The position numbers and the translations under genes were made by a program. A stretch of 44,391 bases of DNA from Alphaproteobacteria bacterium (GTDB taxonomy: Bacteria > Pseudomonadota > Alphaproteobacteria > Micavibrionales > SZUA-601): the NCBI GenBank assembly GCA_003250865.1, contig QKJH01000181.1, positions 1 through 44,391 of the forward strand, read 5' to 3'. Positions within the stretch are counted from its first letter, which is position 1. Every line of letters begins with the position of its first letter. The notes under the pieces were generated by a model, which saw nothing but the letters and a program-made list of their open reading frames with translations, searched no databases and was not told the DNA's origin. Below are positions 8,501 to 34,964 of this stretch, in pieces.

Positions 8501-8575
8501 ATTATAGGGAGATAGCTTCGCATTAATATATTTTATTTTTTATGCCATTTATCTAAACGAAAATAATAATATAAA

Positions 8576-9226: not shown

Positions 9227-9240
9227 AAAAAATCCTCCAC

Positions 9241-9262: not shown

Positions 9263-9280
9263 TTCTTTTTATTTTATCAA

Positions 9281-9286
9281 TATAAT
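9281..9286 (+). promoter_or_regulatory. -10 element (TATAAT) of the permease operon
   Basis: TATAAT is 30 nt upstream of the ATG at 9316. There is no good -35, which fits an activator-dependent promoter. Confidence 0.4.
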
Positions 9287-9315
9287 AAGAACATATCAAT
9301 AGGAGGAGGGCAAGT

Positions 9316-18385: not shown

Positions 18386-20186
18386 GGGATGTGTCCTCCT
18401 TCATAAATAGTTTTTCTAAATCTTCCTCAGACAACAGTTCGTAATCTGCGTCCGTGGGTTCGGGTCCCGGCAGATCTGCCGGGTCGATGTCCGGGTCAAA
18501 TACAAGCGTTGCAACCGTATCGGTGACAGCGCCATGCTGGAATGGTTCGGTTTTTCCGTCCGTAGTGCCATTTACGTTTGGATGGCGCAGGATGTCAAAT
18601 TTCTCGTCTATAATCGGACGCTCGCCGCGAATAAAAAGCAGGGCATAGCGGTTATCCAGCATCCTCACCTCGTCCGGGGTAAGAAGTTCCCGGCCTGAAA
18701 TCTGATAGTTCGTGCTGTAATTACCGTTACGCCCCGTACTTTTACCGTAGGTGTTGGTATCCAGCGTTTCTTTTCCCAAAAGCTCGGAAACGTATTTGTG
18801 TGTGCTTTGCTCATTGCCTCCAAGGTATAAAAACTCGTCGCAGTTGCCGACGATGCTCTCCCACTGCTTTTCAAACAATGCTTTGAGTTGCGCCATGTTT
18901 TGCAGGATGATACTGACCGAAACGCCGCGCGAACGCATGACAGACAGGATTTTGTCAAAATCATCTGGCAATGACACGTTCGCAAATTCGTCCATTAGAA
19001 AATGAACGTGGATAGGCAAGCTCCCGCCGTACTTGTGGTCGGCGCTATAAAAAAGTTGCTGGAAAAGTTGGGTATATAAAATACTGACCAAGAAATTGAA
19101 TGAGCTATCGTTATCAGGTATGATGATGAAAAGCGCGGTTTTCTTCTCACCAATGCTCTCTAATTCTAATTCGTCGGTGACGGTCAGGCTTGCCAGTGAT
19201 TCTAAATTGAATTTTTCCAAACGCGCGGCCAGCGTGATTTGAATGCTTTTCAGGGTTTTTGCACTTCCTGAACGGTAATCTCTATAATATTTAACTGCGA
19301 TATGATCGGGACTTCGCATTTCCAGTCTGTCAAATAGTTCATCCAATGGAGATTGATAACTATCATCATCTTCCCGAACCTCTCCGGCGCGCAGCATTTC
19401 CATCACCATCGAAAAGTTCTGCTCATCAGGCGGCGCTTCGTACTTTAGATAAAACATAAGCGCCAAAAGAAACATAGAGGCCGCTGTATCCCAAAAAGGG
19501 TCTTGGGTCTGTGCGCCTTTAGGGGTGGTACTTTTAAATAAATTTGTGACCAATCTTTGTACGTCGTTGTCCTCTTTGAGATAGACAAAAGGGTTGTAGC
19601 AATGGGAACGTTCCATGTTGATTAAATCCAGCACCTTAACCTCCATTTTTTCTCTCAAAAGGTTGCCAACATCTCTTGTGATTTCACCCTTACAATCCAA
19701 AATTACCATTGAGGTGTTGCAGTTCATTGCGTTTGGTTTGACATAAAATCTTGTTTTACCCGCGCCGGAACCCCCGCACACCAGCACATTCATATTGCGC
19801 CTGTGCTTATGCGCGTCAAAACCAATCCGCACATGCTGTGTCAAAATTTTATTCTCGATAAAGTGTTTATCCGCGTATTTGCGGTTGAGTGCGGCAGCTT
19901 CGCCCCATTTTGCAGAACCGTGTTCCTTACGGGGACGGGTATTGCGTTTGGTGGAAAGATAAATCCCGATCCCCATCCCATAAGCGGCAATAAAAAAGAG
20001 GACAGTTTTTACACTGTCCCCGCACCAAGTTATATTCAAAGGATGATTGATTGCCGTTGTCAGGTTTTGCAGGATTGCGGGAAGTCCTCCTGAAATGGCA
20101 GGGGCGGCAAGCAACGCCGCCCACACCACCGGGATAAGTCCAAACGCAGCCAAAATTAATGTTTGCTTTGGACTATCTCGCTTCAT
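18369..20186 (-). CDS. VirD4/TraG-family type IV coupling protein
   Basis: 605 aa with two N-terminal TM segments. Walker A VCGGSGAGKT, Walker B-like HFLMDEFAN. Confidence 0.9.
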   Translation of the reverse strand: MKRDSPKQTLILAAFGLIPVVWAALLAAPAISGGLPAILQNLTTAINHPLNITWCGDSVKTVLFFIAAYGMGIGIYLSTKRNTRPRKEHGSAKWGEAAALNRKYADKHFIENKILTQHVRIGFDAHKHRRNMNVLVCGGSGAGKTRFYVKPNAMNCNTSMVILDCKGEITRDVGNLLREKMEVKVLDLINMERSHCYNPFVYLKEDNDVQRLVTNLFKSTTPKGAQTQDPFWDTAASMFLLALMFYLKYEAPPDEQNFSMVMEMLRAGEVREDDDSYQSPLDELFDRLEMRSPDHIAVKYYRDYRSGSAKTLKSIQITLAARLEKFNLESLASLTVTDELELESIGEKKTALFIIIPDNDSSFNFLVSILYTQLFQQLFYSADHKYGGSLPIHVHFLMDEFANVSLPDDFDKILSVMRSRGVSVSIILQNMAQLKALFEKQWESIVGNCDEFLYLGGNEQSTHKYVSELLGKETLDTNTYGKSTGRNGNYSTNYQISGRELLTPDEVRMLDNRYALLFIRGERPIIDEKFDILRHPNVNGTTDGKTEPFQHGAVTDTVATLVFDPDIDPADLPGPEPTDADYELLSEEDLEKLFMKEDTSHEEKQ

Positions 20187-20364: not shown

Positions 20365-21246
20365 TCACCTCGCTTCGTTATTTTTTGCCGCCTTTTGCTG
20401 TGCGTCAAGATGCCGTGCCATACGCCCGGAAATTTCTTCGGCAGCGTCGCGGATTTGCGCAAGCCCGCCCTTGACCTCCTGCGCGTCCATACCGTCAAAT
20501 ACACTGTCCACTTTGTCAAAATTAAATTCCTTTGTTTCCGCGCCGTATTTCTTGCAAAGCAAGTACGTTGCGGAATAGGCACAAAACTCTTGTTCCGGCG
20601 ACAGTTCGGGGTCGGTAGCCAATTCAGCGCCTGCCATCTCATACGCCACACTGCGAAAAGTATCGGAAAACGCCATACCTTTGCGAACGAGAATATCACC
20701 ATCGAGATTGGTCATCGCGCCGAGGTCGTCAGGCAGTTCGTCCACTCCTATAATTTTCATCGGGTATTTAGAAATGAGCGCACCTAAAATCTGACGTTCG
20801 GTATAATTGGTTGGCGGCGTATTCCTCAGCTTGCGGGTGTCTACCTGAGAAATGTCAAATACCTTTTTCACGTTATAGCCTGTACCCGGTGAACCGTCCT
20901 CCTTGGTATATTCATGCGGTTCCAAAATTGAGATGGCCGTTTGTCCCGGTCTGACCGAGCAGTTTTTACTTTTCCAGTAGTCGAAGCTGCCCAGCCGAGT
21001 AGCTTCCGGGTTTTGCGCTAAAATTAACAGAGCGTTGACTGTGCTGTAACGGTCGAGAGTTGCCTGTACATCAAGGTATTGTTGGAATCTGCCGCTGTCC
21101 CCGGATACCTCCAGTGCAGTCTGGTCGGATAAAGTGAAAGCATCCTCGCGCTCGTTCTTTTTCTTCGCGGCATATTCTTCCTTGGTAAGCTGTTCGCTCT
21201 GTTCTTCGGCGGGTTCATTGTTCAACAAATCATCAAAATTAGCCAT
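20365..21246 (-). CDS. ArdC-N-like (DUF1738-type) ssDNA-binding domain protein
   Basis: NALLILAQNPEATRLGSFDYWKSKNCSVRPGQTAISILEP resembles the ArdC N-terminal domain pattern. No metallopeptidase HExxH motif was seen. Confidence 0.55.
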   Translation of the reverse strand: MANFDDLLNNEPAEEQSEQLTKEEYAAKKKNEREDAFTLSDQTALEVSGDSGRFQQYLDVQATLDRYSTVNALLILAQNPEATRLGSFDYWKSKNCSVRPGQTAISILEPHEYTKEDGSPGTGYNVKKVFDISQVDTRKLRNTPPTNYTERQILGALISKYPMKIIGVDELPDDLGAMTNLDGDILVRKGMAFSDTFRSVAYEMAGAELATDPELSPEQEFCAYSATYLLCKKYGAETKEFNFDKVDSVFDGMDAQEVKGGLAQIRDAAEEISGRMARHLDAQQKAAKNNEAR

Positions 21247-21248: not shown

Positions 21249-22085
21249 TTAAGACCTCTCTTTCGATTTTTTGGATTTTGATTTTCCTCTGTTTAGTGGC
21301 TGTTTGTGAGTAGTGGCGGTATTGGTTCTCGGTTTTTCCGAAGTCTGCTGTTCATCACGCTTCGGCGCATCCGCTTCTTTCTTCGCCTGCGCCGCCTTGA
21401 TTTCCCGGAGTTCTTCTTTTACAGACGGCTTACTCGAAATACCCCTTGCGGACTTGCTTGGCTTCTCGGAGGTAGGCTCGGACAGACGGGATTTCGTTGT
21501 CTTTGCCAAGTCGGGGTTTTTTTGTGCCGGAGCCTCATTTTGAATTGTGGTTTCAGTTTCCGGCTTGGCTTTGCCCTCGTCCGACGGTAGCAACTCGTCC
21601 AGTAACTTTTCGGTATCGTTCTTGTCCGGGGCTTCCGGCTCCATGCCTTGCGATTTCTCGGACTTGGTTTTAATGATTTCGCTCTCGATCCTCGCCTTAT
21701 CCACCGTCGCAAATTTGAAGCGTTCAATGACACGGCTGATTTTCGGTGCGTCATCGGCCTTTACCAAAATGTCGCACAGGCCGTCCGGGGTGTTTTTGCG
21801 GTTACGCAGGACACAGTAAACAATACCGTATTGCTTTGCGCCCTGTGCGAATTTTTGAAGATCGCTGTCCTTTACTGAAAAAATCTCCAATGCCTTACCG
21901 GATTTCAACATGGATGTCATTCTGGCCTTGCCTTTTAGCTTCAGCTTGCTGTCCTTACTTTTCAGCGCCGCCACTAAAAATGTGGCAATTTCTTTTGCAG
22001 CCGCGCCCGTGATTTTGGCGGCAACCTCAACGCCCTCCAAGCTCATACGGACAATCTGTTCAGCGGCGTCCCCTGAATGGTTCAT
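21249..22085 (-). CDS. PcfB-family (DUF3801) protein
   Basis: The N-terminal AAEQIVRMSLEGVEVAAKITGAAAKEIATFLVAALK pattern is typical of PcfB. The C-terminal half is charged and low complexity. Confidence 0.75.
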   Translation of the reverse strand: MNHSGDAAEQIVRMSLEGVEVAAKITGAAAKEIATFLVAALKSKDSKLKLKGKARMTSMLKSGKALEIFSVKDSDLQKFAQGAKQYGIVYCVLRNRKNTPDGLCDILVKADDAPKISRVIERFKFATVDKARIESEIIKTKSEKSQGMEPEAPDKNDTEKLLDELLPSDEGKAKPETETTIQNEAPAQKNPDLAKTTKSRLSEPTSEKPSKSARGISSKPSVKEELREIKAAQAKKEADAPKRDEQQTSEKPRTNTATTHKQPLNRGKSKSKKSKERS

Positions 22086-23490
22086 GCTTATCCATCTCCT
22101 TTCCTTGTGTTTTTTCCTGATCTTCTGCTGCTCTACGGAGCTTATCCTTCATATCCGCAGAGCGTTTTTCAATGTCCTCACATAATCTCACCTCCCGGCG
22201 TAATTCTCCGATTTTCTCGGACAATTCGGATATTTGCGCTTTCACCGCCGCCAGTTTTTCTTCATCCCGGATGCTCCGGGACTGATAGCGCAAATGCTTC
22301 CGTGTTCCACAAAGACGGATAAGCTCCTTTGTCAATCCATCCTTATATCCGGCAAGCTGTTCCGCTGTATCAATACCGTACTTCACCAGAAGCCGCGTTT
22401 CCTTTGCGATATTCTGAACAAAGCGAATATCCTCGCGGAACAAAAAATAGACTTGTTTGGGATTCGGTTCTTTTTTCTTTGGAAGAACGCCCATTTTATA
22501 CAGATAAGAAAAATACAGGGCGCGAAGCCCTGTAATCCGTCTGGCCGTATTCAGTTTGCCGATAAAACGGTATTGCTTGGATGGTCGTTCTGCCGGGATG
22601 ATTCGCCGCTCCGGGCGGGTGTTCGCTAAGATACGGTTTCGGATAGATTCAATGGAATAATCCTCGCCAAAGTTGCGATAAAGCTTTAATCCGCTGTCTT
22701 TCCCCGGTGGCCGTACCGTAATGTCCTTGCCGAATTTGATATGCCAGCCTTTTTTATAAAGGTTATCCCAAAGCTGCCGCTCGGTCATGGATTCGGTTAT
22801 CGCTTGGTCAATGTCGGCTTTCACCAAAATACGGTAAGTGGGTTTCCCTTCCTTTTCGGCTTTCCACTCGCCGTAGTGCTTGGACTTTCCGCGCTTCGGT
22901 TCATCAATGACCGTCAGGCCATATTCCCGGCACAGCTTATCGGATTCGACTTGCATATTATAAAAATCCTTTTCAGTGCGGTGATAACGGATTCCGTCCA
23001 CCCACGAAACCGTGTTGACGATGAAGTGTGAGTGTAGATGATTGACTTTATCCAAATGAGTAGCGACAATCACCTGATATTTTTCTCCCCAAAGCCGCTG
23101 TGCCAGCTTCACGCCGATTTCATGCGCCATGTCGGGGGTAATCCCCGCCTGCAAATCTTCGGGCGCGAAAGACTGTATACCATGATAAGCGACAACGCCG
23201 TTTTCCTTCCCGAATTTCATTTTTGCCGCCATCATCTCGTCGCGGGCGATTTCCGGCTGACAGTTGATTCCGGTAACATAGTTCCGCAGGATTTCAGCCT
23301 TTTCATCGGTAAGCTGTGTTTTACGGGTTTGAGAAGCGTAATCTATAACATCGGAAAGCCCCTGCGTCTGCTTTTCCGTCATGCCCTGTTTTTCAAAATA
23401 GGCGGGGTTTGCGGTTTTGTCGGGATTCTCCGCATAAACCACCAATTTACCAAGCCAGCCCTTGACCGACCATATAGAAGTAACTGCCAT
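22060..23490 (-). CDS. relaxase / mobilisation nuclease
   Basis: N-terminal relaxase domain with the His triad HLDKVNHLHSHFIVN and a coiled-coil C-terminus. Its start overlaps the mobC stop. Confidence 0.85.
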   Translation of the reverse strand: MAVTSIWSVKGWLGKLVVYAENPDKTANPAYFEKQGMTEKQTQGLSDVIDYASQTRKTQLTDEKAEILRNYVTGINCQPEIARDEMMAAKMKFGKENGVVAYHGIQSFAPEDLQAGITPDMAHEIGVKLAQRLWGEKYQVIVATHLDKVNHLHSHFIVNTVSWVDGIRYHRTEKDFYNMQVESDKLCREYGLTVIDEPKRGKSKHYGEWKAEKEGKPTYRILVKADIDQAITESMTERQLWDNLYKKGWHIKFGKDITVRPPGKDSGLKLYRNFGEDYSIESIRNRILANTRPERRIIPAERPSKQYRFIGKLNTARRITGLRALYFSYLYKMGVLPKKKEPNPKQVYFLFREDIRFVQNIAKETRLLVKYGIDTAEQLAGYKDGLTKELIRLCGTRKHLRYQSRSIRDEEKLAAVKAQISELSEKIGELRREVRLCEDIEKRSADMKDKLRRAAEDQEKTQGKEMDKHEPFRGRR

Positions 23491-23831
23491 TATTCATTCT
23501 TCCTTTCCATTTGGCGGGGAAGCATAACGGCATTGGTGATCTCCACGATAGCCTGATGGAGAGCGGCGGCACTATCGTCGTACCGCTTCACATCCAGCAC
23601 ATTCAGTGTATGGGCTTTCTGTGCGATCTGATTGAGATTCCGGCCAATGCCATGAAGTTCTCTCATCATGTTGTAGTAATCGGGCGGCGGTACGTCGGTA
23701 GGAACAAGGCCGTTAATGATATGGCGCAGATAACTTTCACGGGATAATGCACTTTTTTTGACACGCTTATTGAGTGCTTCGGCTTCTTTTTTATTCAATC
23801 GTAATTTAATTTCAACCGTTCTGTTTTGCAT
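23490..23831 (-). CDS. MobC-family relaxosome accessory protein
   Basis: Start at ATG 23829-23831 (AAAGGAG SD). RLNKKEAEALNKRVKKSALSRESYLRHIING...LHGIGRNLNQIAQKAH is the MobC/RHH pattern. Confidence 0.8.
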   Translation of the reverse strand: MQNRTVEIKLRLNKKEAEALNKRVKKSALSRESYLRHIINGLVPTDVPPPDYYNMMRELHGIGRNLNQIAQKAHTLNVLDVKRYDDSAAALHQAIVEITNAVMLPRQMERKNE

Positions 23832-23857
23832 AGTCCGGCTCCTTTCATTGAGGGGTT

Positions 23858-23922
23858 TTAGGGGATTTTCCCCTAACAAGTTGCCCTTTGGGGACAAAGG
23901 GCGATGCTTGCCAGTATAGTGC
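23858..23922 (+). other. candidate oriT
   Basis: Two perfect inverted repeats: TTAGGGGA-TTT-TCCCCTAA (23858-23876) and GCCCTTTG-GGGA-CAAAGGGC (23883-23902). They are followed by GCTTGCCAGTATAGTGC, which loosely resembles ATAAGTGCGCC-type nic cores. The whole region lies directly upstream of mobC-relaxase. Confidence 0.55.
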
Positions 23923-23971
23923 ATTTCCGAAAGCTCGATCTTTCAGGAGTTCACCGTCCGAAAAAGAAAGC

Positions 23972-24157
23972 TCACCGCTCCTTCTCACGGTCGAGCAGCG
24001 TTCTGAAGGTCACGCCTTTAAAATGGTCGGCGTCCAGAATATAATCGCCGTCTTTCCAATTGCGTTCGGCAATCTCTCGCGCCTGCGCCGCGTTCGCAGC
24101 TTCCACCGTCACGGTCATTCCGAGAGTTTCTGTGATTTTGATTTCATATTCTTTCAT
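23972..24157 (-). CDS. DpnD/PcfM-family small protein
   Basis: MKEYEIKITETLGMTVTVEAANAAQAREIAERNWKDGDYILDADHF matches the remembered DpnD/PcfM pattern. Confidence 0.7.
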   Translation of the reverse strand: MKEYEIKITETLGMTVTVEAANAAQAREIAERNWKDGDYILDADHFKGVTFRTLLDREKER

Positions 24158-25110
24158 CGTGCAAAGCTCCTTTCTTTCGATTGATAGCGGGGCAACCCAA
24201 AACGATCACAGAGGTAATCGTTGTAGTCCTTGCCGGTGGGCGGTGGCTCGTCTGTTGCCTTGTACTGCGCTGGCAGGACTGTCATAATTGCTTTTGTAGC
24301 CAATCGCCCGGCAATATCATTGTCAAGATGCAAATGAACGTGCTGAATGTTCGGGTGATCGGTTAAGAACTGCGTAAGGGCAGGCGGTAAAGTGCTGTCC
24401 TCGATTTTCTTCTTAGGCTTATAAACACCCGAAAGGGAAAGCAGATTGCCATAGGCATGGTTTGTGTCTTTCTCCAATGTGACAAAAGAAAGTAGGTCAA
24501 TGGCGCTTTCAAACAAATGCAAATGCTGGCTTTTGCGGGGCATGGCAAAGGAGTAGTTTTTGTTGCTGCCGGAAACGTCACCTCTGAAATCGCTGTCAAT
24601 GCCCCGAACCGTAGCATATCGCGGAACTTTTTCGGTGTCATAACCCACAAAAACAATATTGTAATAACCGTTCCTATAATTCTGATACACCAGTTCGGAA
24701 TCGGTGCATAGGTGAATCAGGTCGTAGCTGATACCACGTTTATGCAAATACCTCTCCACCATAGACAAGCTGCAATCCCGTTTGGGAAGAACAAAGGGAA
24801 CGCTTTTTTGCGGCTTCGGTGTAGATATGAAAACGGGCGGCTGAATCGCCGCCCGTCCCATAATCTGTTCCACCGCATCGGTGAAGCTCAAACCTTTCAC
24901 CTTAATGAGATAATCTAAAGCCGATCTGCCACCAATCCCACGACTGTGCCAGCACCATTTTCCGTTGCTGATTTTCAGGCTGTCGTGGGTGCGGGTACAA
25001 TAGACGTTTCCGGAAAAGTGAACCAACTCCTGCGGTTCATAATTTTGGAGGTAAGCCAGCAAGTCCATTTTCTTAGCTTCCAGAATTACCTCCGGATCAA
25101 TATATGGCAT
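24154..25110 (-). CDS. DUF3991 plus Toprim domain protein (primase-like)
   Basis: Start MPYIDPE at ATG 25108-25110, 6 nt after AGGAGGTG. N-terminal zinc-binding-like / DUF3991 region. C-terminal Toprim acidic motifs (HLFESAIDLLS, HLHLDNDIAG). Confidence 0.75.
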   Translation of the reverse strand: MPYIDPEVILEAKKMDLLAYLQNYEPQELVHFSGNVYCTRTHDSLKISNGKWCWHSRGIGGRSALDYLIKVKGLSFTDAVEQIMGRAAIQPPVFISTPKPQKSVPFVLPKRDCSLSMVERYLHKRGISYDLIHLCTDSELVYQNYRNGYYNIVFVGYDTEKVPRYATVRGIDSDFRGDVSGSNKNYSFAMPRKSQHLHLFESAIDLLSFVTLEKDTNHAYGNLLSLSGVYKPKKKIEDSTLPPALTQFLTDHPNIQHVHLHLDNDIAGRLATKAIMTVLPAQYKATDEPPPTGKDYNDYLCDRFGLPRYQSKERSFAR

Positions 25111-25134
25111 AGAAACACCTCCTGACATGAAATA

Positions 25135-25162
25135 AGCCGATTGGCTGTTATACCAATCGGCT
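25135..25162 (-). terminator. hairpin after the 414-aa orphan gene
   Basis: AGCCGATTGG-CTGTTATA-CCAATCGGCT is a perfect 10-bp stem. TATTT follows on the minus strand. Confidence 0.5.
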
Positions 25163-25206
25163 ATGTAAAAAGTCTTTAAAAAATTTTTGAGTTAAATTCA
25201 AATACG

Positions 25207-26451
25207 TTATTTTGATAATAATACGAAATATTGAAATAGCTTATTTAATCTTTCAATTTCCTCAGAGTAAATTTTCTCCTGTTGTTTAAAATTCTGAATT
25301 CCCAATGTGCTTAATATATGAGCTTTGGTAGTTTCCTGTTTATCTTTTGAAAGCAGATGGTCTAAGTATATACGGTAATCATGTAGAATATATAATGGCG
25401 AAATCAGTATTTCGATGTCAATATTCTTTTCCATTCCATCACAAAATTTCTTCAATACTTCTTTGAGCAGACGAATAGACTGCCATTTTTTATATTCTTT
25501 TTTCCTTTCCGTTTCAATATATAAGGCTTCATATAACAATCTTAGTTGTTCGACATTAAAGCCCTCAACTAAAATTTTATCAAAGGCATTTATTACACCA
25601 GATACGCTTTGCTCGGTAAAAATAATAGGTCGCTTAACGTTTTTAGCATGAGAAACACATTCTTCATCCAAATGAGTTAAATCAATCCCATACTTCTTTT
25701 TTATATTTGAGATAAAGTTGTCTTTATTGATTAATATCTGATTTTCTCTTATTGGCTCACTAAAAATGCAATTCATCTGTGCCTGAAAAAATTCTGAATT
25801 TGTTATCAAATGGTCAGAGTCTATATTAAAACTTTTAAGAATAGCTTGGCTTTGATCATCCATATCATTCAAGTCACCTAACCAAAATACCAATTTCCCA
25901 TGAGAATTGAACCCAAATGGAACAGCCCATTCATATTGATATATACTTTCTGGGTCTTTTTTCCCTATGTGTCCATATGTTTCAGAAAAAATATCTACTT
26001 CAAAATCGGGAACAGATATAAAATAAATTAGAGCTTTTCTATCAAAATATACCGGAGTTAAAAAACCTTCTACTGAATGTTCCTCATCATAACATAATCC
26101 GGGTATACTGTAATAATCTCTATAATCATAGGAAAAATCCTGACGTTGGCAGTAATCAAACTTTTTTCTATATTCCTTGCGAATGAAATTTCCTTCGAGT
26201 TGATTTTCTTCTACCATACTTTTATAACATCCATCAATCATTCTTTTTGAATGCATAGACAGACACTTTGCTCCACATTTTGCGCATTCAAACACAAGTA
26301 GTTCAGCATAATACAAAAATCTATCCTCTATTTTTACTGTTACTTCATCTTCAACAATTTCTCGTATTCCATTGCAGTTGTTACATTTGTCCATATGGTA
26401 TCTTTTATATTCAGACAAAAAATCATCATAGGTTTTAAACTCAATGTTCAT
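25207..26451 (-). CDS. hypothetical protein with N-terminal zinc-ribbon-like motif (AT-rich cargo gene)
   Basis: 414-aa ORF with CNNCNG ... CAKCGAKC. Codon usage and base composition are strikingly AT-rich compared with both neighbours. No family recognised. Confidence 0.7.
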   Translation of the reverse strand: MNIEFKTYDDFLSEYKRYHMDKCNNCNGIREIVEDEVTVKIEDRFLYYAELLVFECAKCGAKCLSMHSKRMIDGCYKSMVEENQLEGNFIRKEYRKKFDYCQRQDFSYDYRDYYSIPGLCYDEEHSVEGFLTPVYFDRKALIYFISVPDFEVDIFSETYGHIGKKDPESIYQYEWAVPFGFNSHGKLVFWLGDLNDMDDQSQAILKSFNIDSDHLITNSEFFQAQMNCIFSEPIRENQILINKDNFISNIKKKYGIDLTHLDEECVSHAKNVKRPIIFTEQSVSGVINAFDKILVEGFNVEQLRLLYEALYIETERKKEYKKWQSIRLLKEVLKKFCDGMEKNIDIEILISPLYILHDYRIYLDHLLSKDKQETTKAHILSTLGIQNFKQQEKIYSEEIERLNKLFQYFVLLSK

Positions 26452-26517
26452 AAGCGCACTCCATTTATAATTTGTATAGTTAAACTTTTATTCAGTGCCT
26501 ATCAGTTTGAGATTATA

Positions 26518-26546
26518 ATTATATCATAAATTTATGGGATTTTCTA
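26518..26546 (-). promoter_or_regulatory. promoter of the 414-aa orphan gene
   Basis: On the minus strand: TAGAAA (26546-26541), 17 nt, then an extended -10 TGATATAAT (26526-26518). This is about 65 nt upstream of the ATG. Confidence 0.5.
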
Positions 26547-26708
26547 CCCTCGAGGGGTATGTAAAAAGCAGCATCAGCCATCAGCTAATGCCACTTTCTG
26601 CAAAATTCATTCAGTTAAATCGCACCAATCTTTTAAGATACGCTAAGTTGTCTGCGTGTCCGTAAAATAAAGGCTCTGCTCTTCGGCTTCCAACTGCAAA
26701 TGTGCGAA

Positions 26709-29700
26709 TTACCGTTCCAAACCCGCGACCTTTGGAGCGCGTTCCGTTTCGCCCTCATCTGGGGCGTAGTCAAGAATCGCACTGTCTTTTTCATCCATGT
26801 TTAGCAAAGAGTTCACTTCCCGGAGCCGTGCAGATTTCGTCAAATATTCCTGCTCCTGCGGAAACGGGCGTAATACCTCGCCCTGTGCTGATTTAAACTG
26901 CGTTTGCGTATCCGCAAGGGTACTTTCGCAACGTTGGAGCGATGAAGAAAAGCTCTCCAGCGCATTGTCAAGGCGGGTGATATTGCCGTGGATGTCCGTA
27001 CCCAATTTGATCGTGTGGGAGAGCGCGCCGGACAGCGTAACACGGTACTCTTTTGCGTAGCTGTCAAAGGATAATATCATCTGAAAGCCGCGATATTCGC
27101 CCACCGGAACAGGGTCGGGGGAAGTCATGGCTTTGCAGGCTTCAATGATGGCTTTGCCCGCGTCGGCTTTCTCGGCATAAAGAATCCCGCCTACGGTCAT
27201 GGGCGGGAAGTGGTCTTTATCTGCCGGGTGCTTTGCTGAGGTTTCCATATCGGCCTTATAGCCTGCTATCCGTTCAGTCATCCGTTTGATTTCCTGCGGA
27301 TATTCCTTCAAAATCTTATCTTCAAGAGCGTACCGCTGGCTCAAATGGCTGGCTTGCAGGATCTTCAGCTTGTTCACGTCCATTTCAAGCTGGCACTTTT
27401 CGATAATCAGTGGATTTCCCGTTGCCAACGCTTTGATTTCAGCATAACTCAAAGCCGTTTCGTCCACGTCCTCGGCAATGCGGGCGGGCGTTTTGCTGGT
27501 CATGACTTGGGCTATAAACTTCTGTTTGTTTTCCACAAGCTGATAGAGGTAGCTGTCGAACGTTCCCTCGGTAACATAACGGAATATCTCGACTTCGGCG
27601 TTTTTATTGCCCTGCCGGACAATACGCCCAAGCCGCTGTGCAAGGTCGCTCGGCCGCCAAGGGCAGTCGAGGTCATGCAAGGCAATAAGTTTATCCTGCA
27701 CGTTGGTTCCCGCACCCATTTTCTGTGTGCTTCCCATCAGATTACGGATTTGACCTTTGCGCACCTTTGCAAAAAGTTCCTTTTTTTGTGCTTCAGTAGT
27801 GGCTTCGTGGATAAAAACGGTTTCATCTACGGGAACGCCTTTTGCGATTAGTTTCTTTCTGAGGTCGTCATATACATTGAGAAATTCGACAGAATGAAGT
27901 TCACCGTCTTTTTCTACCATCTCATTGTTCTTTTTTGGTGTGGATAAATCGCAGAAAATAAGCTGTGCCAACTGTTTATCTTTATTTTCTTCCCAAATAC
28001 GGAATACCTTTTCGGCACAGACCGCAACTTTGCCTTCCGGGTCGTCGGGTAACATGGGATTGATAAGCCGCTGGTCAAGCGCCAGCTTCCTGCCGTCGTT
28101 CGTCACCTTGAGCATATTATCAACGGTAGGATCAACATCGCCTTTGCGTATAGCTTCGGCGCGCTCGGCCAGTTCCGCTACCATATCCTGCTGCCACTGG
28201 CTCGGTTTGATGACGATGGTGTGAAAATTCGCCTTTGGCACGGGTAGTTTGAGCATATCGGCGGTTTGAATGTCGGCAACCTGCCGAAACATAGCCATAA
28301 GCTCCGGGAGATTGTAAAACTTAGCGAATCGGGTTTTGGCGCGGTAGCCGGTTCCCTCCGGCGCAAGCTCGATGGCGGTCACCGTTTCCCCGAACGTACT
28401 CGCCCATGCGTCAAAATGCTGCAAGCCCTGACGTACCAATTCCTTGTATTGAAGATACCGCTGCATGGTATATAGCTCCACCATGCTGTTTGAGATCGGC
28501 GTACCTGTGGCAAAGACTGTGCCGCGACTGCCCGTAAGCTCATCAAGATATTGTGTTTTCATGAACAAGTCGGAGCTTTTCTGAGCTTCGGTCTGTGCGA
28601 TACCGCCCACATTCCGCATTTTTGTTAGCAAAAATAAATTTTTAAAATAGTGCGCCTCGTCGATAAAAAGGCGGTCTGTACCAAGTTCTTCAAAGGTGAC
28701 AACGTCATCCTTGCGGCTTTGATCGTTCAGCTTTTTCAGCTTCACCTCAAGGTTTTTCTTCATTTTTTCCATTGCCTTGATTGTATAGCGTTCGCCGTTG
28801 TTTGCCTTGATTTCAGAAATGCCCATGACAATTTCATCAATCTGCCGCTCCATCATAGCCTGCTGGCGTTCTACGCTCATGGGGATTTTTTCAAACTGCG
28901 AATGTCCGATGATAATTGCGTCGTAATCCCCGGTGGCGATCCGGGCGCAGAATTTTTTACGGTTTTTGGTTTCAAAATCCTTTTTGGTCGCTACAAGGAT
29001 ATTCGCGGAAGGATAAAGCTGCAAAAACTCTGACGCCCACTGCTCGGTGATATGATTCGGTACGACGATCAGGCTTTTGTTGCACAGCCCCAAACGCTTG
29101 CTTTCCATCGCGGCGGCTACCATTTCAAAGGTTTTGCCCGCGCCCACTTCGTGCGCCAATAGGGTGTTGCCGCCATATAGGATGTGGGCGATTGCGTCTA
29201 TCTGGTGCTTTCTCAATATAATTTCGGGGTTCATGCCGGGGAAGGTAAGGTGTGAGCCGTCATACTCGCGGGGTCTTATGCTGTTGAATTTGTCGTTATA
29301 CATCCGGCAGAGCCGTTCACGCCGGGCGGGGTCTTGCCATATCCATTCCTGAAACTTGGAACGGATAAGCTCCTGCTTGGCCTGCGCGATGGCGGTTTCT
29401 TTTTTATTCAGGACGCGCTTTTCAGTTCCGTCCGGGTCATACACCTTGTCCCAAACGCGAACATCCCGCAGATTCAGTGATTCTTCGATGATTTTATAGG
29501 CGTTGATACGCTGTGTGCCGTAGGTGTTAAAGGAATGGATATTGCTTCTGTCGTAGTTCTTTTCGGTTATATTCCATTCCCCATTATAATGGGTATAATG
29601 CACCTTTACGCGCCCACGGGCATAACTCGGTGTTTGCAAAAGTTCATACATGAACTGCTGAACAACATCCTCCGGGAGCCATGTCGCGCCCAGGCGCACC

Positions 29701-32700
29701 GATATTTCGGCGGCGGTCAGGTCGGGCGGCTGCGCCGCTTCAAGGGCTTTGACATTAACGGTATAATCCTCCGGGTAAAGCTCGGCACTCTTTTTCGCCC
29801 ATTCCAGCTTTTCCCGGACGTTGCCGGAAAGGTATTCATCGGCGGTCAGGTATTTTTCTTGATTGTTACCGCTATATCCGTGCATAGGATTGAGGAAAAT
29901 CACGCCTTCAAGCTCCTTGGCCAGCGTTTCCTCGGTCATGCTTGTAAGCTGCGCCATGAAAGGCAGATCAACCCTTGCTTTTTCGGCCAGTGATACCGCC
30001 AACGCTTCGCTTGCCGTGTCCACATGGGTAACGGGGATATGCGCCTGTATGGTGCGCTTACTAAACATATCGGCTTTGCGCTCCAGCTCGCCGTTTTCGT
30101 CGATGACTTCCAGAGAGCAAAGCAGGCAATAGGCGCTGTCCTGTGAAAACGCTATGCTGTTGCCGCGCGAATTGATAAGCCCGTATTTGCGGGTAAAGCT
30201 GTCATACAGGCGGTTCAGCTTTGCCTGTTCCGCTTGTATGGCGCTGTCAGGATAATCGCTGGTCTGATAGAAAATCAGGTTACGGACGCACTCCCGCAGT
30301 TCTATCAAGCCCTTTACACGGCTTTGCGTCGTAACAGGCAGCTCCACGGGAACCATGCGGCTGTCCTGCCGGTAGTAGATTTGTCCTTCCACAAGGGTAT
30401 AGCTGAAATTACGCACATTCGGGTCAGAGGGGATGGAATGATCTTCTTCCAGTTCGTCCTCATCGTATTCGTATTCGGTGATTTCAGCGTGAATATTGGT
30501 GATAGCTTCGTCAAGCTGTGCCGGAAGGTCGCTGTCCTCAAACGGGTTACAGGCGGTTTCTTTCCCGTTGCCGTACATCCTATCGTCCCACGCCATTGTG
30601 CCGAGTATCATGTCGGGGTGTTCGGCAAAATAGCTGTTGACGGGTATGCCGTCCTCTGTTTGTCCCAAATGCACCCAATCGGGTTCAATGTCGATAATAC
30701 GGTCACGTTTTTGTAAAAAGATGATGTCTGTGGTGACTTCCGTTCCGGCATTGGCTTTGAAAGCCGTGTTGGGAAGCCGTATCGCGCCGAGCAGATCCGC
30801 CCGCTGCGCAATATACTTACGGACGGCGGGGTTTTCTTTGTCCAGCGTTCCCTTTGAGGTTACAAACGCCACGATACCACCGGGGCGTACCTTGTCCAGC
30901 GTCCGGGCAAAGAAATAATCGTGGATGTGGAATTTGTATTTGTCATACCGCTTGTCGGCAACCTTATAATTCCCAAACGGCACATTGCCGATGGCAAGAT
31001 CGAAAAAGCTGTCGGGCAGGTCGGTTTTTTCAAAGCCTTGTATGGCAATGCTGTTCCTTTGGTATAGCTGTTGGGCGATGCGCCCGGTCAGGCTGTCAAG
31101 CTCCACACCGAACAGCTTGCTCTCCCTCATAGATTCGGGCAGAAGGCCAAAGAAATTACCGATGCCGCAGGATGGTTCCAGCACATTACCCGTCTTGAAG
31201 CCCATGTTTTCCACAACTTTATAGATGGCTTTGATAACGGTGGGGCTGGTGTAATGGGCGTTCAGGGTGCTTGACCGCGCTGATTCGTATTCGTCAGGTG
31301 AAAGCGTAGCTTGAAGCTCAGAAAACTCATTTGTCCATGAGGTACTCTCAGGGTCGAACGCCTGCGGTAAGCCGCCCCATCCCACATACCGCGCCAATAC
31401 TTCCTGTTCCTCCGGCGTGGCAAAGCGGTTTTCAAGCTCAATCGCTTGCAGGGTCTTGATCGCTTCCATATTGTTGCGGAATTTCGTCTTTGCACCGCCC
31501 ACGCCTAAATCATCGTCTATAATACGGTAATTATGGCGCTCGGACATGGGAATTTCCGGGTGCGGGTCAAAGGTCTGCGTCCGGCTGCGGCGTTTGGCCT
31601 GCTCCCACGCGGGGATCAGGGTTTCTTCTTTTTCGGCTGGCTTGTAGGGAGGGAGGTCAATAACAATGCTCTTTAATCCGCCCTCTATCTCCTTGAATAC
31701 GGGTTCATCAGATGTAGTCTGCTGTGTTTCTTTTTCGGCTGGTAAGTCCTGCGGCTTTTCTTCTATGGGGTCATACTGACGGATAAAGTCCAGCGGTTCG
31801 CTGCGGAATATGGGAAAACCCACGCCGTTTTCAAAGGTAACATCCCGCAGCTTGATCTCGTCGGCGTCCTCGTCTACGCTGTCAACGATAAACTGCCTGC
31901 CGTCGATTTCATACCGCTTACCGACAAGGAATTCCGGCGTTTCTTCCTCTGTGAGATAGGCGTACTCGATAAAGTCGGCAATCTCCTTGTAATCGCCTGT
32001 ACCGCCTCGATTGTCGTATTCCTCCAGACCGACCTCAATCAATTCGTCGGAAACGATATACCCGCGCCAGTCCAGCGCGTCACGGATTTGGTCTTTCAGT
32101 TCCGCATCTTTGTCAATGTCCGGTTCCTGCTGCGGTTCCGTTACGCCCTCATCGGTCTTGATAAGCCCGTCATTCAAGTGGTTTTCCCGCAGCTTGCGGT
32201 CAAATTCGTCGCGGGGCATTTCCTGTGTGAATATCGGAAATTTCACGTCCCGAAGCACCACATGGGTATCGTCAAAGGAATAAATCTCGTATTCATCCGT
32301 ACCGAGATACACCGAAACGCCAAGCTGAAGGTCATACTGGACAGCTTCATCAGTGGGAACGGCAGACAACTCCGGCGCTTTGGGTGCGGGAGCAGCCGTT
32401 TCTTTTTCGGCAGGTTTCATAGGAGTGAACAGCGAAAACGTGCCGTTTTGATATGCGGTCAGGTGGTCGAACGCTCTCCGCATCAATTCATAATTACGGT
32501 CAAAATCGGCGGTATTGTCGAGCATCACCGCCATTTGGCTGAGAATTTCTGCGACACGCTCCGGCTCGTCAAGCTGTGGACGAACGATTTTCACGCTGTC
32601 CCAAAAGTCCGTACCGTGAGGAAACTGACGCGGTAAATCTTCCGACTGATAGGGGTAGAAGCTGACAACCTCTCTTGCCAGTTCTTCCTTTTCATATTCA

Positions 32701-34964
32701 GGAATATAGTCAAGCTCACGCTGGCTCATATACCGCCCGTCCGCGATAAGCTCATCAATGCGCTTGGCAACCTTGCCCCACGGCAGGATAACCTTGTCGT
32801 AGGGCATATGATTATTTTCCCGGCTGAATGAAATACCTTTGCTGTCGTGCCATTCGGTAGTACCACTGCCACCTGTTCCGTATTCATCTTTTAAGAAATT
32901 GGATTTTTCTTTGGCGGTATGGTTTTGTAAAAAGAAAGAATAGACGCGGAATTTACTGTCCTCAATATTTGCCCCGCCGATTAAGAGCGCGTCAACCTCG
33001 TCCTGTGTTATAAAACCCGGACGCGCGGTGGAAACCGATTCGTCGGCGGTAAACACAAGAGATTCGCGCTGTAAGTCTTTAAGCCCGCGCAGAGCGTCCG
33101 GTACATGCCAATGGAGATAATTTATCCACTTAAAATCATCTGATAATGCACCTGACCGCGCAATCTGCCAATCGCCGTCCAACTTATTGATAACGAGCTG
33201 GAGAGTTTCGGGATTGCATAGATGTTCTGCTATTACAGGGACACATTGATGGAAATTGGAACCGTTTACTGTCCATTCCTGCGGCAGTTTTCCCACGCCG
33301 TCCCGGTAGATGAAATACAGTTTTGAGGTCAATTCCGATAACACAAGGCCGTCTGCCTTGTCGATTTCTTTTTGCGGGGCATATCGGCCCATGTCCAGCA
33401 GTTCGCGGATTCGCCTTGCCGCCTGTTCCCATGTAACAACGGAAGCGTCTGCGACGTTCAGCGCGGTGTCGCCTACGGCAACATGGATTCCGCTCTCGTT
33501 AAACCAAGCCGCTACATGATTCCCGCCGAAAAGAAAGCCCTTGCCGCCGCTGCCGTACTCCTGTTTGAGAAAATCAGCATTATCGGCTGTTGTATGGTCT
33601 TTTTTGAAATAGTAAACAATACGGTGGATGCTATTTTCCTTGTTGCCGCCGCTGGTCAAAACTTCGTCAATGATTTGCTGAGAAAAAGAAAAAGCGGAGG
33701 ATTTGGCTTTCGCCGTTTCCTCCGCTTCACCCATAAGGGTAAGCTGTTGGTATTCTGTTGGCAGGGGTTTTATGCGAATATCAGGTCGTTCAGTATCGTT
33801 TCCTCCGCCGCCTGCCGGATGTTGTTCATCAACCCCACCCACTGCATTTGATTCTCGGCTTTCATCTGCTCCGTAACGCCCTGTGCCGCCGCCATCTGTG
33901 CGGTCAGCAGTTCCATCCTCTCGTTGGCCGTCTGCTCGGTCTCCATCAGGTGTTGGTTGAGGGTGCAACTCGTCAGCAGATTGGTGAACAGAATCCTGCG
34001 GTGCTGTTTCAGATATTTCTTTCGGAGCAATGCGTACTTGCCAAGGGTTACGGGCGGTTCCTCCGGTACTGTCAGGTTGGGTACGCGATAGTTGCTCTCC
34101 ATCCGATATGTCAGTTCCATATTCAAAACTCCTCTCATGTTGCTCTTTATTTGTATCATCATTATGGGGTATTTTCTCTTTGGATGCAAATGTGCGATTT
34201 ATATTTCTTTCTTGTTTTTGCAAAGTTATCACGGTAGCCGCAATTTCACGCAGACAGGTTTCCGCAATGTCGCTGGTCGCTATACCGAGAGCATTGACGG
34301 TCTGCCGGGTATTAAATTCCGCAATGCTTTGAAAGTCCTCAAAATTAAAATAGCTTTCACCGTCGATACCGCAGCGGATCAGAAGCATATACGCTACGCT
34401 GTTTTGAAGTGCGGTACGGTAAGCCACTTCCACGTTGAAGTCGTCCAGTTCTTCCAAAAAGCTGTCCTCACGGCAGTACTTGAGTTCATTCAGATAATCT
34501 GTGAGGTTATCGTCCACGGCGTTTTTTGCCGCAGAAATAAGGGCGGCGGCCAATGTGGACGTGTCCTCAAGCTCGCCAAAGGAATTTTCCAAATGCTCAA
34601 TGACTTCGGCATCATACCGTGCGTTCATCTGCCAAATTGGTACAGGTCGGGCGTTACGGCTCTCATGGGTGTCTGAAATATCAAAATAATGCTTCAGACG
34701 GGAATTGCCGTTATGCTCATCATCAAAGACGGCAATCCCTGTCGCGCCTTTGTTTACCCATCGGCCAAACTGCTTGTTCCATTTTTCAATTTCAAGGACA
34801 GCCGTTGCGTCCGGGCGTTGGGTGTAAATCAGGATTTGCTCGTCAAAGCGGCATTTGTAGTTGCGGCAGGCAGAGCGCATGAACCTCATCCACTCGGTCG
34901 GTGTGTTTGTCACCCGCCCAAGGGTGGATTCATATGCGTCTGTGATTAGCTGGTATTTTGTCAT
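26709..34964 (-). CDS. polyvalent protein: ArdC-N-like domain, duplicated LPD-type domains, N6-adenine DNA methyltransferase, SNF2-family helicase
   Basis: Uninterrupted 2751-codon ORF with an AAAGGAGG SD. MTase motif I NVLEPSCGIGNFF (31149-31187) and motif IV GNVPFG (30972-30989). Helicase GAGKT (29130-29144), DEAH (28650-28661), TGTPISNS and QRLGRIVRQGN. Confidence 0.85.
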   Translation of the reverse strand: MTKYQLITDAYESTLGRVTNTPTEWMRFMRSACRNYKCRFDEQILIYTQRPDATAVLEIEKWNKQFGRWVNKGATGIAVFDDEHNGNSRLKHYFDISDTHESRNARPVPIWQMNARYDAEVIEHLENSFGELEDTSTLAAALISAAKNAVDDNLTDYLNELKYCREDSFLEELDDFNVEVAYRTALQNSVAYMLLIRCGIDGESYFNFEDFQSIAEFNTRQTVNALGIATSDIAETCLREIAATVITLQKQERNINRTFASKEKIPHNDDTNKEQHERSFEYGTDISDGEQLSRTQPDSTGGTARNPWQVRIAPKEISETAPQDSVHQSADELHPQPTPDGDRADGQREDGTADRTDGGGTGRYGADESRESNAVGGVDEQHPAGGGGNDTERPDIRIKPLPTEYQQLTLMGEAEETAKAKSSAFSFSQQIIDEVLTSGGNKENSIHRIVYYFKKDHTTADNADFLKQEYGSGGKGFLFGGNHVAAWFNESGIHVAVGDTALNVADASVVTWEQAARRIRELLDMGRYAPQKEIDKADGLVLSELTSKLYFIYRDGVGKLPQEWTVNGSNFHQCVPVIAEHLCNPETLQLVINKLDGDWQIARSGALSDDFKWINYLHWHVPDALRGLKDLQRESLVFTADESVSTARPGFITQDEVDALLIGGANIEDSKFRVYSFFLQNHTAKEKSNFLKDEYGTGGSGTTEWHDSKGISFSRENNHMPYDKVILPWGKVAKRIDELIADGRYMSQRELDYIPEYEKEELAREVVSFYPYQSEDLPRQFPHGTDFWDSVKIVRPQLDEPERVAEILSQMAVMLDNTADFDRNYELMRRAFDHLTAYQNGTFSLFTPMKPAEKETAAPAPKAPELSAVPTDEAVQYDLQLGVSVYLGTDEYEIYSFDDTHVVLRDVKFPIFTQEMPRDEFDRKLRENHLNDGLIKTDEGVTEPQQEPDIDKDAELKDQIRDALDWRGYIVSDELIEVGLEEYDNRGGTGDYKEIADFIEYAYLTEEETPEFLVGKRYEIDGRQFIVDSVDEDADEIKLRDVTFENGVGFPIFRSEPLDFIRQYDPIEEKPQDLPAEKETQQTTSDEPVFKEIEGGLKSIVIDLPPYKPAEKEETLIPAWEQAKRRSRTQTFDPHPEIPMSERHNYRIIDDDLGVGGAKTKFRNNMEAIKTLQAIELENRFATPEEQEVLARYVGWGGLPQAFDPESTSWTNEFSELQATLSPDEYESARSSTLNAHYTSPTVIKAIYKVVENMGFKTGNVLEPSCGIGNFFGLLPESMRESKLFGVELDSLTGRIAQQLYQRNSIAIQGFEKTDLPDSFFDLAIGNVPFGNYKVADKRYDKYKFHIHDYFFARTLDKVRPGGIVAFVTSKGTLDKENPAVRKYIAQRADLLGAIRLPNTAFKANAGTEVTTDIIFLQKRDRIIDIEPDWVHLGQTEDGIPVNSYFAEHPDMILGTMAWDDRMYGNGKETACNPFEDSDLPAQLDEAITNIHAEITEYEYDEDELEEDHSIPSDPNVRNFSYTLVEGQIYYRQDSRMVPVELPVTTQSRVKGLIELRECVRNLIFYQTSDYPDSAIQAEQAKLNRLYDSFTRKYGLINSRGNSIAFSQDSAYCLLCSLEVIDENGELERKADMFSKRTIQAHIPVTHVDTASEALAVSLAEKARVDLPFMAQLTSMTEETLAKELEGVIFLNPMHGYSGNNQEKYLTADEYLSGNVREKLEWAKKSAELYPEDYTVNVKALEAAQPPDLTAAEISVRLGATWLPEDVVQQFMYELLQTPSYARGRVKVHYTHYNGEWNITEKNYDRSNIHSFNTYGTQRINAYKIIEESLNLRDVRVWDKVYDPDGTEKRVLNKKETAIAQAKQELIRSKFQEWIWQDPARRERLCRMYNDKFNSIRPREYDGSHLTFPGMNPEIILRKHQIDAIAHILYGGNTLLAHEVGAGKTFEMVAAAMESKRLGLCNKSLIVVPNHITEQWASEFLQLYPSANILVATKKDFETKNRKKFCARIATGDYDAIIIGHSQFEKIPMSVERQQAMMERQIDEIVMGISEIKANNGERYTIKAMEKMKKNLEVKLKKLNDQSRKDDVVTFEELGTDRLFIDEAHYFKNLFLLTKMRNVGGIAQTEAQKSSDLFMKTQYLDELTGSRGTVFATGTPISNSMVELYTMQRYLQYKELVRQGLQHFDAWASTFGETVTAIELAPEGTGYRAKTRFAKFYNLPELMAMFRQVADIQTADMLKLPVPKANFHTIVIKPSQWQQDMVAELAERAEAIRKGDVDPTVDNMLKVTNDGRKLALDQRLINPMLPDDPEGKVAVCAEKVFRIWEENKDKQLAQLIFCDLSTPKKNNEMVEKDGELHSVEFLNVYDDLRKKLIAKGVPVDETVFIHEATTEAQKKELFAKVRKGQIRNLMGSTQKMGAGTNVQDKLIALHDLDCPWRPSDLAQRLGRIVRQGNKNAEVEIFRYVTEGTFDSYLYQLVENKQKFIAQVMTSKTPARIAEDVDETALSYAEIKALATGNPLIIEKCQLEMDVNKLKILQASHLSQRYALEDKILKEYPQEIKRMTERIAGYKADMETSAKHPADKDHFPPMTVGGILYAEKADAGKAIIEACKAMTSPDPVPVGEYRGFQMILSFDSYAKEYRVTLSGALSHTIKLGTDIHGNITRLDNALESFSSSLQRCESTLADTQTQFKSAQGEVLRPFPQEQEYLTKSARLREVNSLLNMDEKDSAILDYAPDEGETERAPKVAGLER
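33770..34120 (-). CDS. TnpV-like protein, encoded in an alternative frame inside the polyvalent ORF
   Basis: 116 codons from ATG 34118-34120, with a GAGAGGAG SD 8 nt upstream. MELTYR..YRVPNLTVPEE...LGKYALLRKKYLKQHRRILFTNLL...GVTEQMKAENQMQWVGLMNNIRQAAEETILNDLIFA follows the remembered TnpV family pattern. Confidence 0.6.
   Translation of the reverse strand: MELTYRMESNYRVPNLTVPEEPPVTLGKYALLRKKYLKQHRRILFTNLLTSCTLNQHLMETEQTANERMELLTAQMAAAQGVTEQMKAENQMQWVGLMNNIRQAAEETILNDLIFA

Follow-up and report, generated by a model that had tools for sequence, protein, structure and literature searches.

The window analysed here is the entire contig C50 (QKJH01000181.1; 44,391 nt) of a 1.28-Mb, 65%-complete metagenome-assembled genome (MAG), and it carries an integrative conjugative element (ICE). 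The element is a Clostridia ICE with the backbone order polyvalent gene, DUF6664, cargo, Toprim gene, NikA-like gene, relaxase gene. At the cargo position it contains an AT-rich cassette with a single gene for a protein of 414 amino acids (aa). We propose that the cassette is horizontally acquired cargo in a variable ICE slot and encodes a new anti-phage or abortive-infection protein that works as a single gene and is expressed constitutively, a proposal that we regard as evenly poised between right and wrong. Defence cargo in an ICE hotspot is known as a kind, while no library searched describes the family of the protein or the greater part of its fold. The cassette and its borders comprise the following features:

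25207..26451, minus strand: cassette open reading frame (ORF), product of 414 aa (P0001), uncharacterised family
26459..26462, minus strand: GGAG ribosome-binding site (RBS), 7 nt ahead of the ATG, read from the sequence
26518..26546, minus strand: promoter-like site TAGAAA-17-TGxTATAAT (extended -10, sigma-70 type), found by promoter scan and conserved in loci L109 and L099
26558..26568, minus strand: copy of the 11-bp direct repeat CTTTTTACATA on the upstream side, the first bases of which form the U-tract of the upstream terminator
26562..26599, minus strand: terminator-like hairpin ending the unit of the polyvalent gene and a DUF6664 remnant (-21 kcal/mol, z -4.9), conserved in L109
25162..25172, minus strand: downstream copy of the 11-bp direct repeat CTTTTTACATA
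25135..25162, minus strand: hairpin with an 11-bp stem between the cassette and the Toprim gene, found by hairpin scan and folding; a cassette terminator or a Toprim leader, probably part of the backbone

The GC content, determined in 500-nt windows, was 0.31-0.32 over positions 25001-26500 versus 0.46-0.52 on both sides. The insert itself (25173-26557) had a GC content of 0.30 and a GC content at third codon positions (GC3) of 0.25; GC3 was 0.54 for the neighboring Toprim gene and 0.57 for the polyvalent gene. For the complete ICE the GC content was 47-48% and for the host MAG 0.466, and only 0.07% of the 1.4-kb windows of the MAG were equally AT-rich, in effect the cassette window alone. Since its GC content is far below that of both the ICE and the MAG, the cassette DNA is foreign to both. 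An earlier note, made from the sequence of this DNA alone, had described a single-gene cargo that is more AT-rich than the flanking ICE DNA and has its own promoter. The composition, together with the promoter evidence described below, agrees with this description.

The two copies of CTTTTTACATA listed above are the only exact copies in the window and are located exactly at the compositional borders; the 1.28-Mb MAG contains three. Seven cassette-free ICEs (L025, L026, L027, L029, L032, L036, L039) contained CTTTTTACATA only once, about 60 bp ahead of the Toprim gene, with the layout GC-rich hairpin, CTTTTTACATAG, CCG..., RBS, Toprim gene. The simplest model is a single insertion of ~1385 bp right after CTTTTTACATA, by which the 11-mer would have been duplicated. 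The motif CTTTTTACATAG after the GC-rich hairpin is a conserved pre-Toprim junction motif in this sub-lineage, which was doubled where the 414-aa cassette was present and nowhere else. It may mark the point of cargo insertion or exchange.

The same cassette was present in two other ICE lineages. One of them has the closest homolog, P0002 (75% aa and 76% nt identity, GC content 0.31), which was found on six metagenome contigs, directly upstream of a DUF3991/Toprim_2 - NikA-like - relaxase module and downstream of DUF6664. It was flanked by the same CTTTTTACATA pair, of which the downstream copy deviates at one position. The Toprim protein of the P0002 lineage was 50% identical to the Toprim protein of the window, and the cargo is thus better conserved than the backbone. 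The third copy, P0017 (71%), had a DUF6664 remnant on one side and a remnant of the Toprim 5' end on the other, and TTTACATAG was retained on both sides. An independent context for this copy (L099), suggested by its TTTACATAG repeats, was rejected because the alignment showed the DUF6664 and Toprim remnants and, therefore, the same junction. The earlier note had also called the cassette recently acquired. Its foreign composition supported acquisition, but recency was not supported, since three diverged ICE lineages share the cassette (71-75% identity to the two others) with the same flanks at one site. Either the insertion would be older than much of the ICE divergence and would have escaped amelioration, or the cassette would have been exchanged between diverged ICEs at this junction. 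In a locus of the P0002 ICE lineage (L108:2036-3406) the cassette was also preceded by a second DUF6664 copy and by the gene for a caspase-like Peptidase_C14 protein; the slot thus held several cargo genes there.

To compare the slot between related ICEs, 80 loci encoding Toprim relatives (35-86% identity) were used, 51 of which also contained the C-terminus of the upstream polyvalent protein. In these 51 loci, the distance between the polyvalent and Toprim genes was 18 bp in 4, 38-49 bp in 6 and 354-4130 bp in 41 cases; it is 1598 bp in the window. The DNA between both genes often had a lower GC content than the flanks. DUF6664 usually followed the polyvalent gene directly, with the cargo between DUF6664 and the Toprim gene. 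None of the 80 loci contained a homolog of the cassette protein. The comparison that the earlier note had proposed thus revealed a variable junction, which was only 18-49 bp long in some ICEs and occupied by other cargo in others. We scanned the ten largest cargo proteins against PADLOC and Pfam, and for six of them a PADLOC model of a defence or candidate-defence system covered most of the relevant domain:

L023: DarG (6e-135); a 218-aa upstream ORF may be DarT
L063: AbiU/AIPR (1e-103)
L091: SoFic (3e-116)
L031: PDC-S27 (1e-54)
L022 and L024: helix-turn-helix (HTH) plus HipA-like protein, PDC-M03A (1e-17)

The slot is, therefore, dominated by defence and toxin-antitoxin (TA)-type cargo, and the occurrence of DarG, AbiU, SoFic, PDC-S27 and PDC-M03A in the same slot of relatives lends comparative support to a role of the cassette in defence. 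The Schlafen/AlbA_2 plus HATPase_c_4 cargo of L083 was recognised mainly by Pfam (1e-22 to 1e-27), with a weaker, partial and pAgo-associated PADLOC match (8e-16). No PADLOC match was obtained for the remaining three proteins, slot cargo of unassigned families in L020 (3917-4930, 337 aa), L047 (3475-4905, 476 aa) and L088 (3056-4261, 401 aa). The cargo of L020 and L047 was markedly and that of L088 slightly AT-rich compared to the flanks, and all three are candidates for further new defence genes. Remote homology of the cassette protein to slot cargo was also considered and rejected (hhalign probability <1% against the AbiU protein of L063, the 476-aa protein of L047 and the 337-aa protein of L020).

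Outside of this ICE family, homologs of the cassette protein were found next to diverse defence systems. The homolog P0016 (71% identical) was located among a Lamassu-type locus (LmuB, 2.5e-136), a SpbK-like TIR protein, a PrimPol/PbeA-like helicase and a PDC-M12A/AbiLi ATPase. P0101 adjoined a SIR2-APAZ/pAgo fusion (E=0), a type I restriction-modification system or serine recombinases. P0074 immediately followed BREX PglZ/BrxL; P0050 was the first gene of a post-guaA island containing a retron-type reverse transcriptase (II-A, 1e-120); and P0012 had a STAND-like NTPase on one side and a FokI-domain protein on the other. P0052 was adjoined by insertion sequence elements and had either a prophage end or the gene for a tRNA methyltransferase on its upstream side. 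A distant homolog on a Pseudomonas syringae plasmid was the first cargo gene directly after the gamma-mobile-trio (GmtY/Z/X), and a Clostridium plasmid copy was located near dcm and an integrase gene. A search of plasmids gave two records with homologs. The search of 50,697 phage records for the family gave no match, and in IMG/VR a single locus was detected, in which the gene lies outside of the prophage recombinase pair, beside SUKH immunity and Tox-GHH genes. Seven distant long-form homologs had scattered defence matches among 60 neighbor proteins (PDC-S02, PD-T4-6, mad6, type II restriction endonuclease). Taking all contexts together, defence genes were present within 8 kb in about 8 of 13 distinct cases, a raw and qualitative count, uncorrected for background. 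The survey of homolog neighborhoods for defence islands, also proposed in the earlier note, thus pointed to a qualitative association, which was modest around the distant homologs.

Two further observations were made in these contexts. In the P0101 clade (L012, L013, L015, L016) a conserved ORF of 136 aa with a weak HARE-HTH match lies ~200 bp upstream of the gene in several contexts; the window contains no equivalent of this ORF. In L101 (6911-9585), P0074 has a complete Peptidase_M42 gene on one side and, on the other, a duplicate 3' fragment of the same gene, 84 codons long (77% aa, 87% nt identity). This arrangement is a signature of integration into a gene 3' end, yet only a single gene lies between the repeats.

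The promoter scan as a whole was not above chance (12 sites versus 8.8 expected). The site at 26546..26518 was the joint-best one in 24900-26900, scoring 10/12, and its -35 and extended -10 blocks were conserved in both other cassette-bearing lineages (L109 and L099), which bears out the promoter with a TAGAAA -35 region and an extended -10 that the earlier note had assigned to the cassette. The note had also assigned a terminator hairpin to it. The hairpin 25162..25135 was the sole terminator-like site detected by the scan of the region, and the 91-nt stretch 25120-25210, which holds it, folded with -22.6 kcal/mol (z = -5.1). Its stem covaries in L099 (GAGTGG/CCACTC versus GATTGG/CCAATC). Since its 5' arm TACATAGCCGATTGG recurs upstream of the Toprim gene in L020, an ICE with different cargo, the hairpin probably belongs to the ICE backbone. 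It can, therefore, not be counted as a property of the cassette, although its position still fits a terminator. Missing from the earlier account was the upstream hairpin at ~26562-26599, which is predicted to separate the cassette from the transcription unit of the polyvalent gene. With strong hairpins upstream and downstream and its own promoter-like site, the cassette appears to be insulated on both sides.

The cassette ORF is intact and real, and its product starts with MNIEFKTYDD.... The gene is present as a single copy in its genome. A word-indexed search gave 178 homologs, all annotated as hypothetical, and clustering at 50% identity resulted in 286 representatives (E<=1e-3). The family is sparse and accessory, being present in 10 of 401 genomes sampled from the phylum. 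It is under strong purifying selection and has many invariant polar residues. None of the homolog accessions was mentioned in the literature, and an Rfam scan returned nothing meaningful. Pfam, NCBIfam, PHROG and PADLOC models matched the cassette protein with 0 families at E<=10, in agreement with the earlier note, which had recognised no family; 46 homologs (21-51% identity) compared with hidden Markov models (HMMs) gave nothing beyond generic zinc-ribbon models. The protein was divided into three parts:

26197..26451, minus strand: zinc-ribbon domain, residues 1-85 (C23, C26, C56, C59), with a fold like the MqsA N-terminal domain (Foldseek, profile search, Cys conservation)
25747..26169, minus strand: alpha/beta core, residues ~95-235 (GFLTPVYF, FGxN182, WLGD193, N209xxSD213H), conserved, no structural relative found
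25210..25746, minus strand: all-helical domain, residues 236-414, with D358-x-R360-x4-H365 (domain model, conservation)

The zinc site consists of C23-x2-C26 and C56-x2-C59. Among the 46 homologs C56 was invariant and the other three Cys residues were conserved to at least 90%, which confirmed the two CxxC pairs that had been noticed at the N-terminus. The AlphaFold2 model of the whole protein had a mean predicted local distance difference test score (pLDDT) of 92 and a predicted TM score (pTM) of 0.79; pLDDT was about 90 for residues ~95-235 and 93.4 for residues 236-414 when the latter were modelled separately. In Foldseek searches of the PDB and BFVD only residues ~1-70 were recognised, as the zinc-binding N-domain of the antitoxin MqsA. 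The best matches, 3gn5 and 3ga8, had probabilities of 0.95-0.96 and a root-mean-square deviation (rmsd) of 3.3 over 65 columns; for 3gn5_B, 3ga8 and 3hi2_A together, probabilities were 0.84-0.96, with rmsd 3.3-3.9 over 64-66 columns and TM (target) 0.35-0.58. The E-values for these structures were weak (0.2-0.4). Sequence and profile searches of the PDB gave a weak match to the MqsA N-domain (E 0.17-0.46), covering the same residues as the Foldseek match, and otherwise nothing. No structural relative was found in the PDB or BFVD for the alpha/beta core (~95-235) or the helical domain (236-414), and the model of the C-terminal domain alone had no significant match in the PDB (best probability 0.18). 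The sensitive profile and structure searches that the earlier note had called for, therefore, revealed an MqsA N-domain likeness for residues ~1-70 and left the ~340 other residues unmatched.

Conserved polar residues in the 46 homologs were D112, N182, D193, N209, S212-D213-H214, E296, D358, R360 and H365, with R360 invariant and D358 and H365 conserved to at least 90%. Distant relatives of 526-610 aa have an unrelated N-terminal region of ~300 aa instead of the zinc ribbon, and a Pfam scan of these proteins detected no domain. They retain F136, N182, D193, N209 and E236, with D or E aligned at D213 by inspection, and most of them also retain the R-x4-H motif. Since the zinc ribbon is swapped for a ~300-aa region while the core is kept, the architecture is that of a variable N-terminal module and a conserved core. 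These relatives (L117, L118, L120, L121 and L107:7188-8768) share the core only (model positions ~120-350 and the R-x4-H helix). We also considered a HEPN RNase, as suggested by D358-x-R360-x4-H365 (pattern R-x4-6-H; R360-IYLD-H365). The HEPN models of Pfam matched neither the protein (E<=10) nor any of the 46 homologs (E<=1), and no HEPN structure was among the top 50 PDB matches of the C-terminal model (pLDDT 93). The protein was, therefore, not classed as HEPN, and the motif is kept as a motif-level lead. A separate group of proteins, P0106-P0120 (335-608 aa, mostly 571-576), had a Wzy_C (O-antigen ligase) domain in all but one member. Their C-terminal ~246 aa were 72% identical to residues 169-414 of the cassette protein, and one of them occurred on 52 contigs. 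They probably arose by in-frame fusion of a truncated copy with a neighboring gene.

From these data a mechanism can be proposed. The gene would be constitutively expressed in the ICE-bearing cell. The N-terminal domain of MqsA binds its partner toxin, and the MqsA-like zinc ribbon of the cassette protein may serve as a recognition or auto-inhibitory module, acting as a sensor or cis-inhibitor. The core, residues ~95-414, would be the effector, with the near-invariant residues N182, D193, N209, D213, E236, R360 and H365. Such a combination of acidic, amide and Arg/His side chains would fit a metal-dependent hydrolase acting on nucleic acid or nucleotide; the catalytic chemistry of the core is a guess. 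Infection would release or activate the effector, phage propagation would be halted, and the ICE and its host would be protected. It is conceivable, although we consider it rather doubtful, that the core is an undescribed effector fold with interchangeable N-terminal sensors (the zinc ribbon or the ~300-aa module), which would make the family the first of a new class of single-chain bacterial immunity proteins that work by a new biochemical mechanism.

Nearly all genes of the element in the contig are on the minus strand. Besides the cassette, the following features of the backbone were assigned:

26709..34964, minus strand: polyvalent gene, product of 2751 aa (upstream neighbor), ORF
26597..26690, minus strand: frameshifted remnant of ~27 codons, probably the C-terminus of the backbone gene DUF6664 (nucleotide alignment, weak protein similarity)
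24154..25110, minus strand: DUF3991/Toprim_2 gene (downstream neighbor), family match
23490-23924, minus strand: NikA-like gene
22060-23490, minus strand: relaxase gene
21249-22085: DUF3801
20365-21246: gene for an ArdC-N protein
18369-20186: coupling protein gene

The probable DUF6664 remnant was indicated by nucleotide alignment with the DUF6664 3' end of L108-L112 and by a weak protein score of 32, and it would imply a deletion in the ICE of the window. The likely start codon of the Toprim gene is the ATG at 25110, with AGGAGG ahead of it, rather than the one at 25128, which is the first in frame; an exact-sequence look-up of the protein with either start codon gave no record. The ICE was not found in 60 relatives of the MAG. 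Inside the element, the GC content is also lowered (0.32-0.39) at 5501-9500, which may be another cargo region.

The earlier note had considered a defence, an anti-defence or an exclusion determinant. The cargo of the slot, the homologs in defence islands and the absence from phage genomes argue for defence and favor it over anti-defence. Several findings weigh against a function in defence. The PADLOC-DB v2 models did not match the protein, no enzymatic fold or motif was identified in it, and the fold search did not bear out a HEPN domain. The link to defence genes is a qualitative one (about 8 of 13 contexts), and the neighborhoods of the distant 535-610-aa homologs contained a modest number of defence matches. 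DarTG, HipA-like and Fic cargo of the slot is also of TA type, with a possible role in element stabilisation, and the region may be a leading region, the typical place of anti-defence genes. The cassette gene could have another accessory function unrelated to genetic conflict, as a regulator or in stress or metabolism, and hitch-hike in variable regions. Neither the sequence nor the fold reveals a function, and some contexts lack a recognised defence gene, as such a role would allow; the protein, however, recurs in unrelated genomes beside defence systems of various kinds and in a slot given over to such cargo, which makes this role somewhat unlikely. We consider it unlikely that the cassette is an addiction or stabilisation module, in which an MqsA-N-like domain fused in cis to a toxic core would retain the ICE and not stop phages. 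The N-domain does resemble the toxin-binding domain of an antitoxin, the slot also holds TA-type cargo (DarTG, HTH plus HipA-like, Fic), and fused TA single genes are documented (PMC11980606), but one stable polypeptide lacks the differential stability that is required for post-segregational killing. Moreover, homologs are also present in chromosomal defence islands, away from elements that need stabilisation, and the TA systems DarTG and SoFic of the slot are themselves phage defences in PADLOC.

A factor for anti-defence or establishment that is made early in the recipient from a leading region, beside the polyvalent and ArdC-like proteins, would agree with the co-orientation of the gene with the adjoining polyvalent gene and the relaxase module and with the ArdC-N protein encoded at 20365-21246. 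It is nevertheless quite improbable: the cargo in the slot of relatives is defence and not anti-defence, homologs were found in 0 phage genomes and 2 plasmid records, many of them lie on chromosomes next to defence systems and away from conjugation genes, and the promoter is of the ordinary double-strand sigma-70 type. ArdA/ArdC/KlcA/PsiB/SSB-type similarity was not detected either, as no family in four HMM libraries matched the protein. The 414-aa protein could also be an unrecognised recombinase or insertase that places its own 1.4-kb cassette at CTTTTTACATA. This would explain the exact 11-bp direct repeat around the insert, which is single-copy at the equivalent site of the 7 cassette-free ICEs, the location of 2 of the 3 CTTTTTACATA copies of the MAG at the cassette borders, and the L101 homolog between the M42 peptidase gene and its duplicated 84-codon 3' fragment. 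However, the three repeat-flanked lineages share the same ICE junction, and a single event is thus sufficient. Conserved ends, inverted repeats and significant flanking repeats were absent from 10 other contexts, inverted terminal repeats were not found at the cassette ends, and the gene is single-copy in the genome and has no similarity to recombinases or transposases. We regard this explanation as very improbable.

If the cassette protein indeed acts in defence, the family (at least 286 clusters at 50% identity) would be an inexpensive test case for what is possibly a new immune effector, as a single gene comes with its own promoter, and the cassette would show how immunity genes are shuttled by ICEs between gut bacteria. 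Defence-system catalogues cover gut Clostridia poorly, and our comparison defines a slot (polyvalent gene, DUF6664, cargo, Toprim gene) with the junction motif CTTTTTACATAG in widespread Clostridia ICEs. Since DarTG, AbiU and SoFic alternate in this slot with unassigned AT-rich genes, it can be mined for further candidates.

The cassette protein shares features with several known systems. Like the HEPN Abi proteins (AbiD/F, AbiJ, AbiU2, AbiV) it is encoded by a single gene and has an all-helical C-terminal region with an invariant R-x4-H (R360...H365), but it matched no HEPN HMM or structure, and two helices follow the motif. With MqsA it shares a zinc ribbon of ~65 residues with four Cys and the same predicted fold; unlike MqsA, it lacks the C-terminal HTH-XRE domain and has 340 unrelated residues in the same chain. 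We found no small co-oriented ORF for an MqsR partner at 26452-26708 or 25111-25206, and no HTH family match. CapRel-SJ46 is a fused toxin-antitoxin single-gene module. Fusions of MqsR-MqsA and DUF4258-MqsA in single genes exist as well, and some TA gene fusions function in phage defence (PMC11980606). Such fusions resemble the cassette protein in that a single chain joins a domain of antitoxin type to a larger conserved module and is encoded by a lone gene in mobile or defence contexts. They differ from it in that the cassette module is neither of the BECR/RelE fold nor a recognised toxin (Pfam, fold search), the antitoxin-like domain comes first, and toxicity is putative.

The closest parallels at the level of the element are defence hotspots of other ICEs. 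Hotspot 5 of the SXT ICE is one of these hotspots for defence cargo. SpbK of ICEBs1 is likewise defence cargo in a hotspot of an integrative conjugative element (PMC8880864). In contrast to this system, the cassette protein has no similarity to SpbK or to PADLOC models, and it belongs to an ICE family of gut Clostridia (MOB relaxase/NikA/DUF3991-Toprim/polyvalent). In common with the ICE hotspot defences, the cassette is an accessory gene, probably expressed independently, in a fixed but variable slot, in which relatives carry different anti-phage systems.

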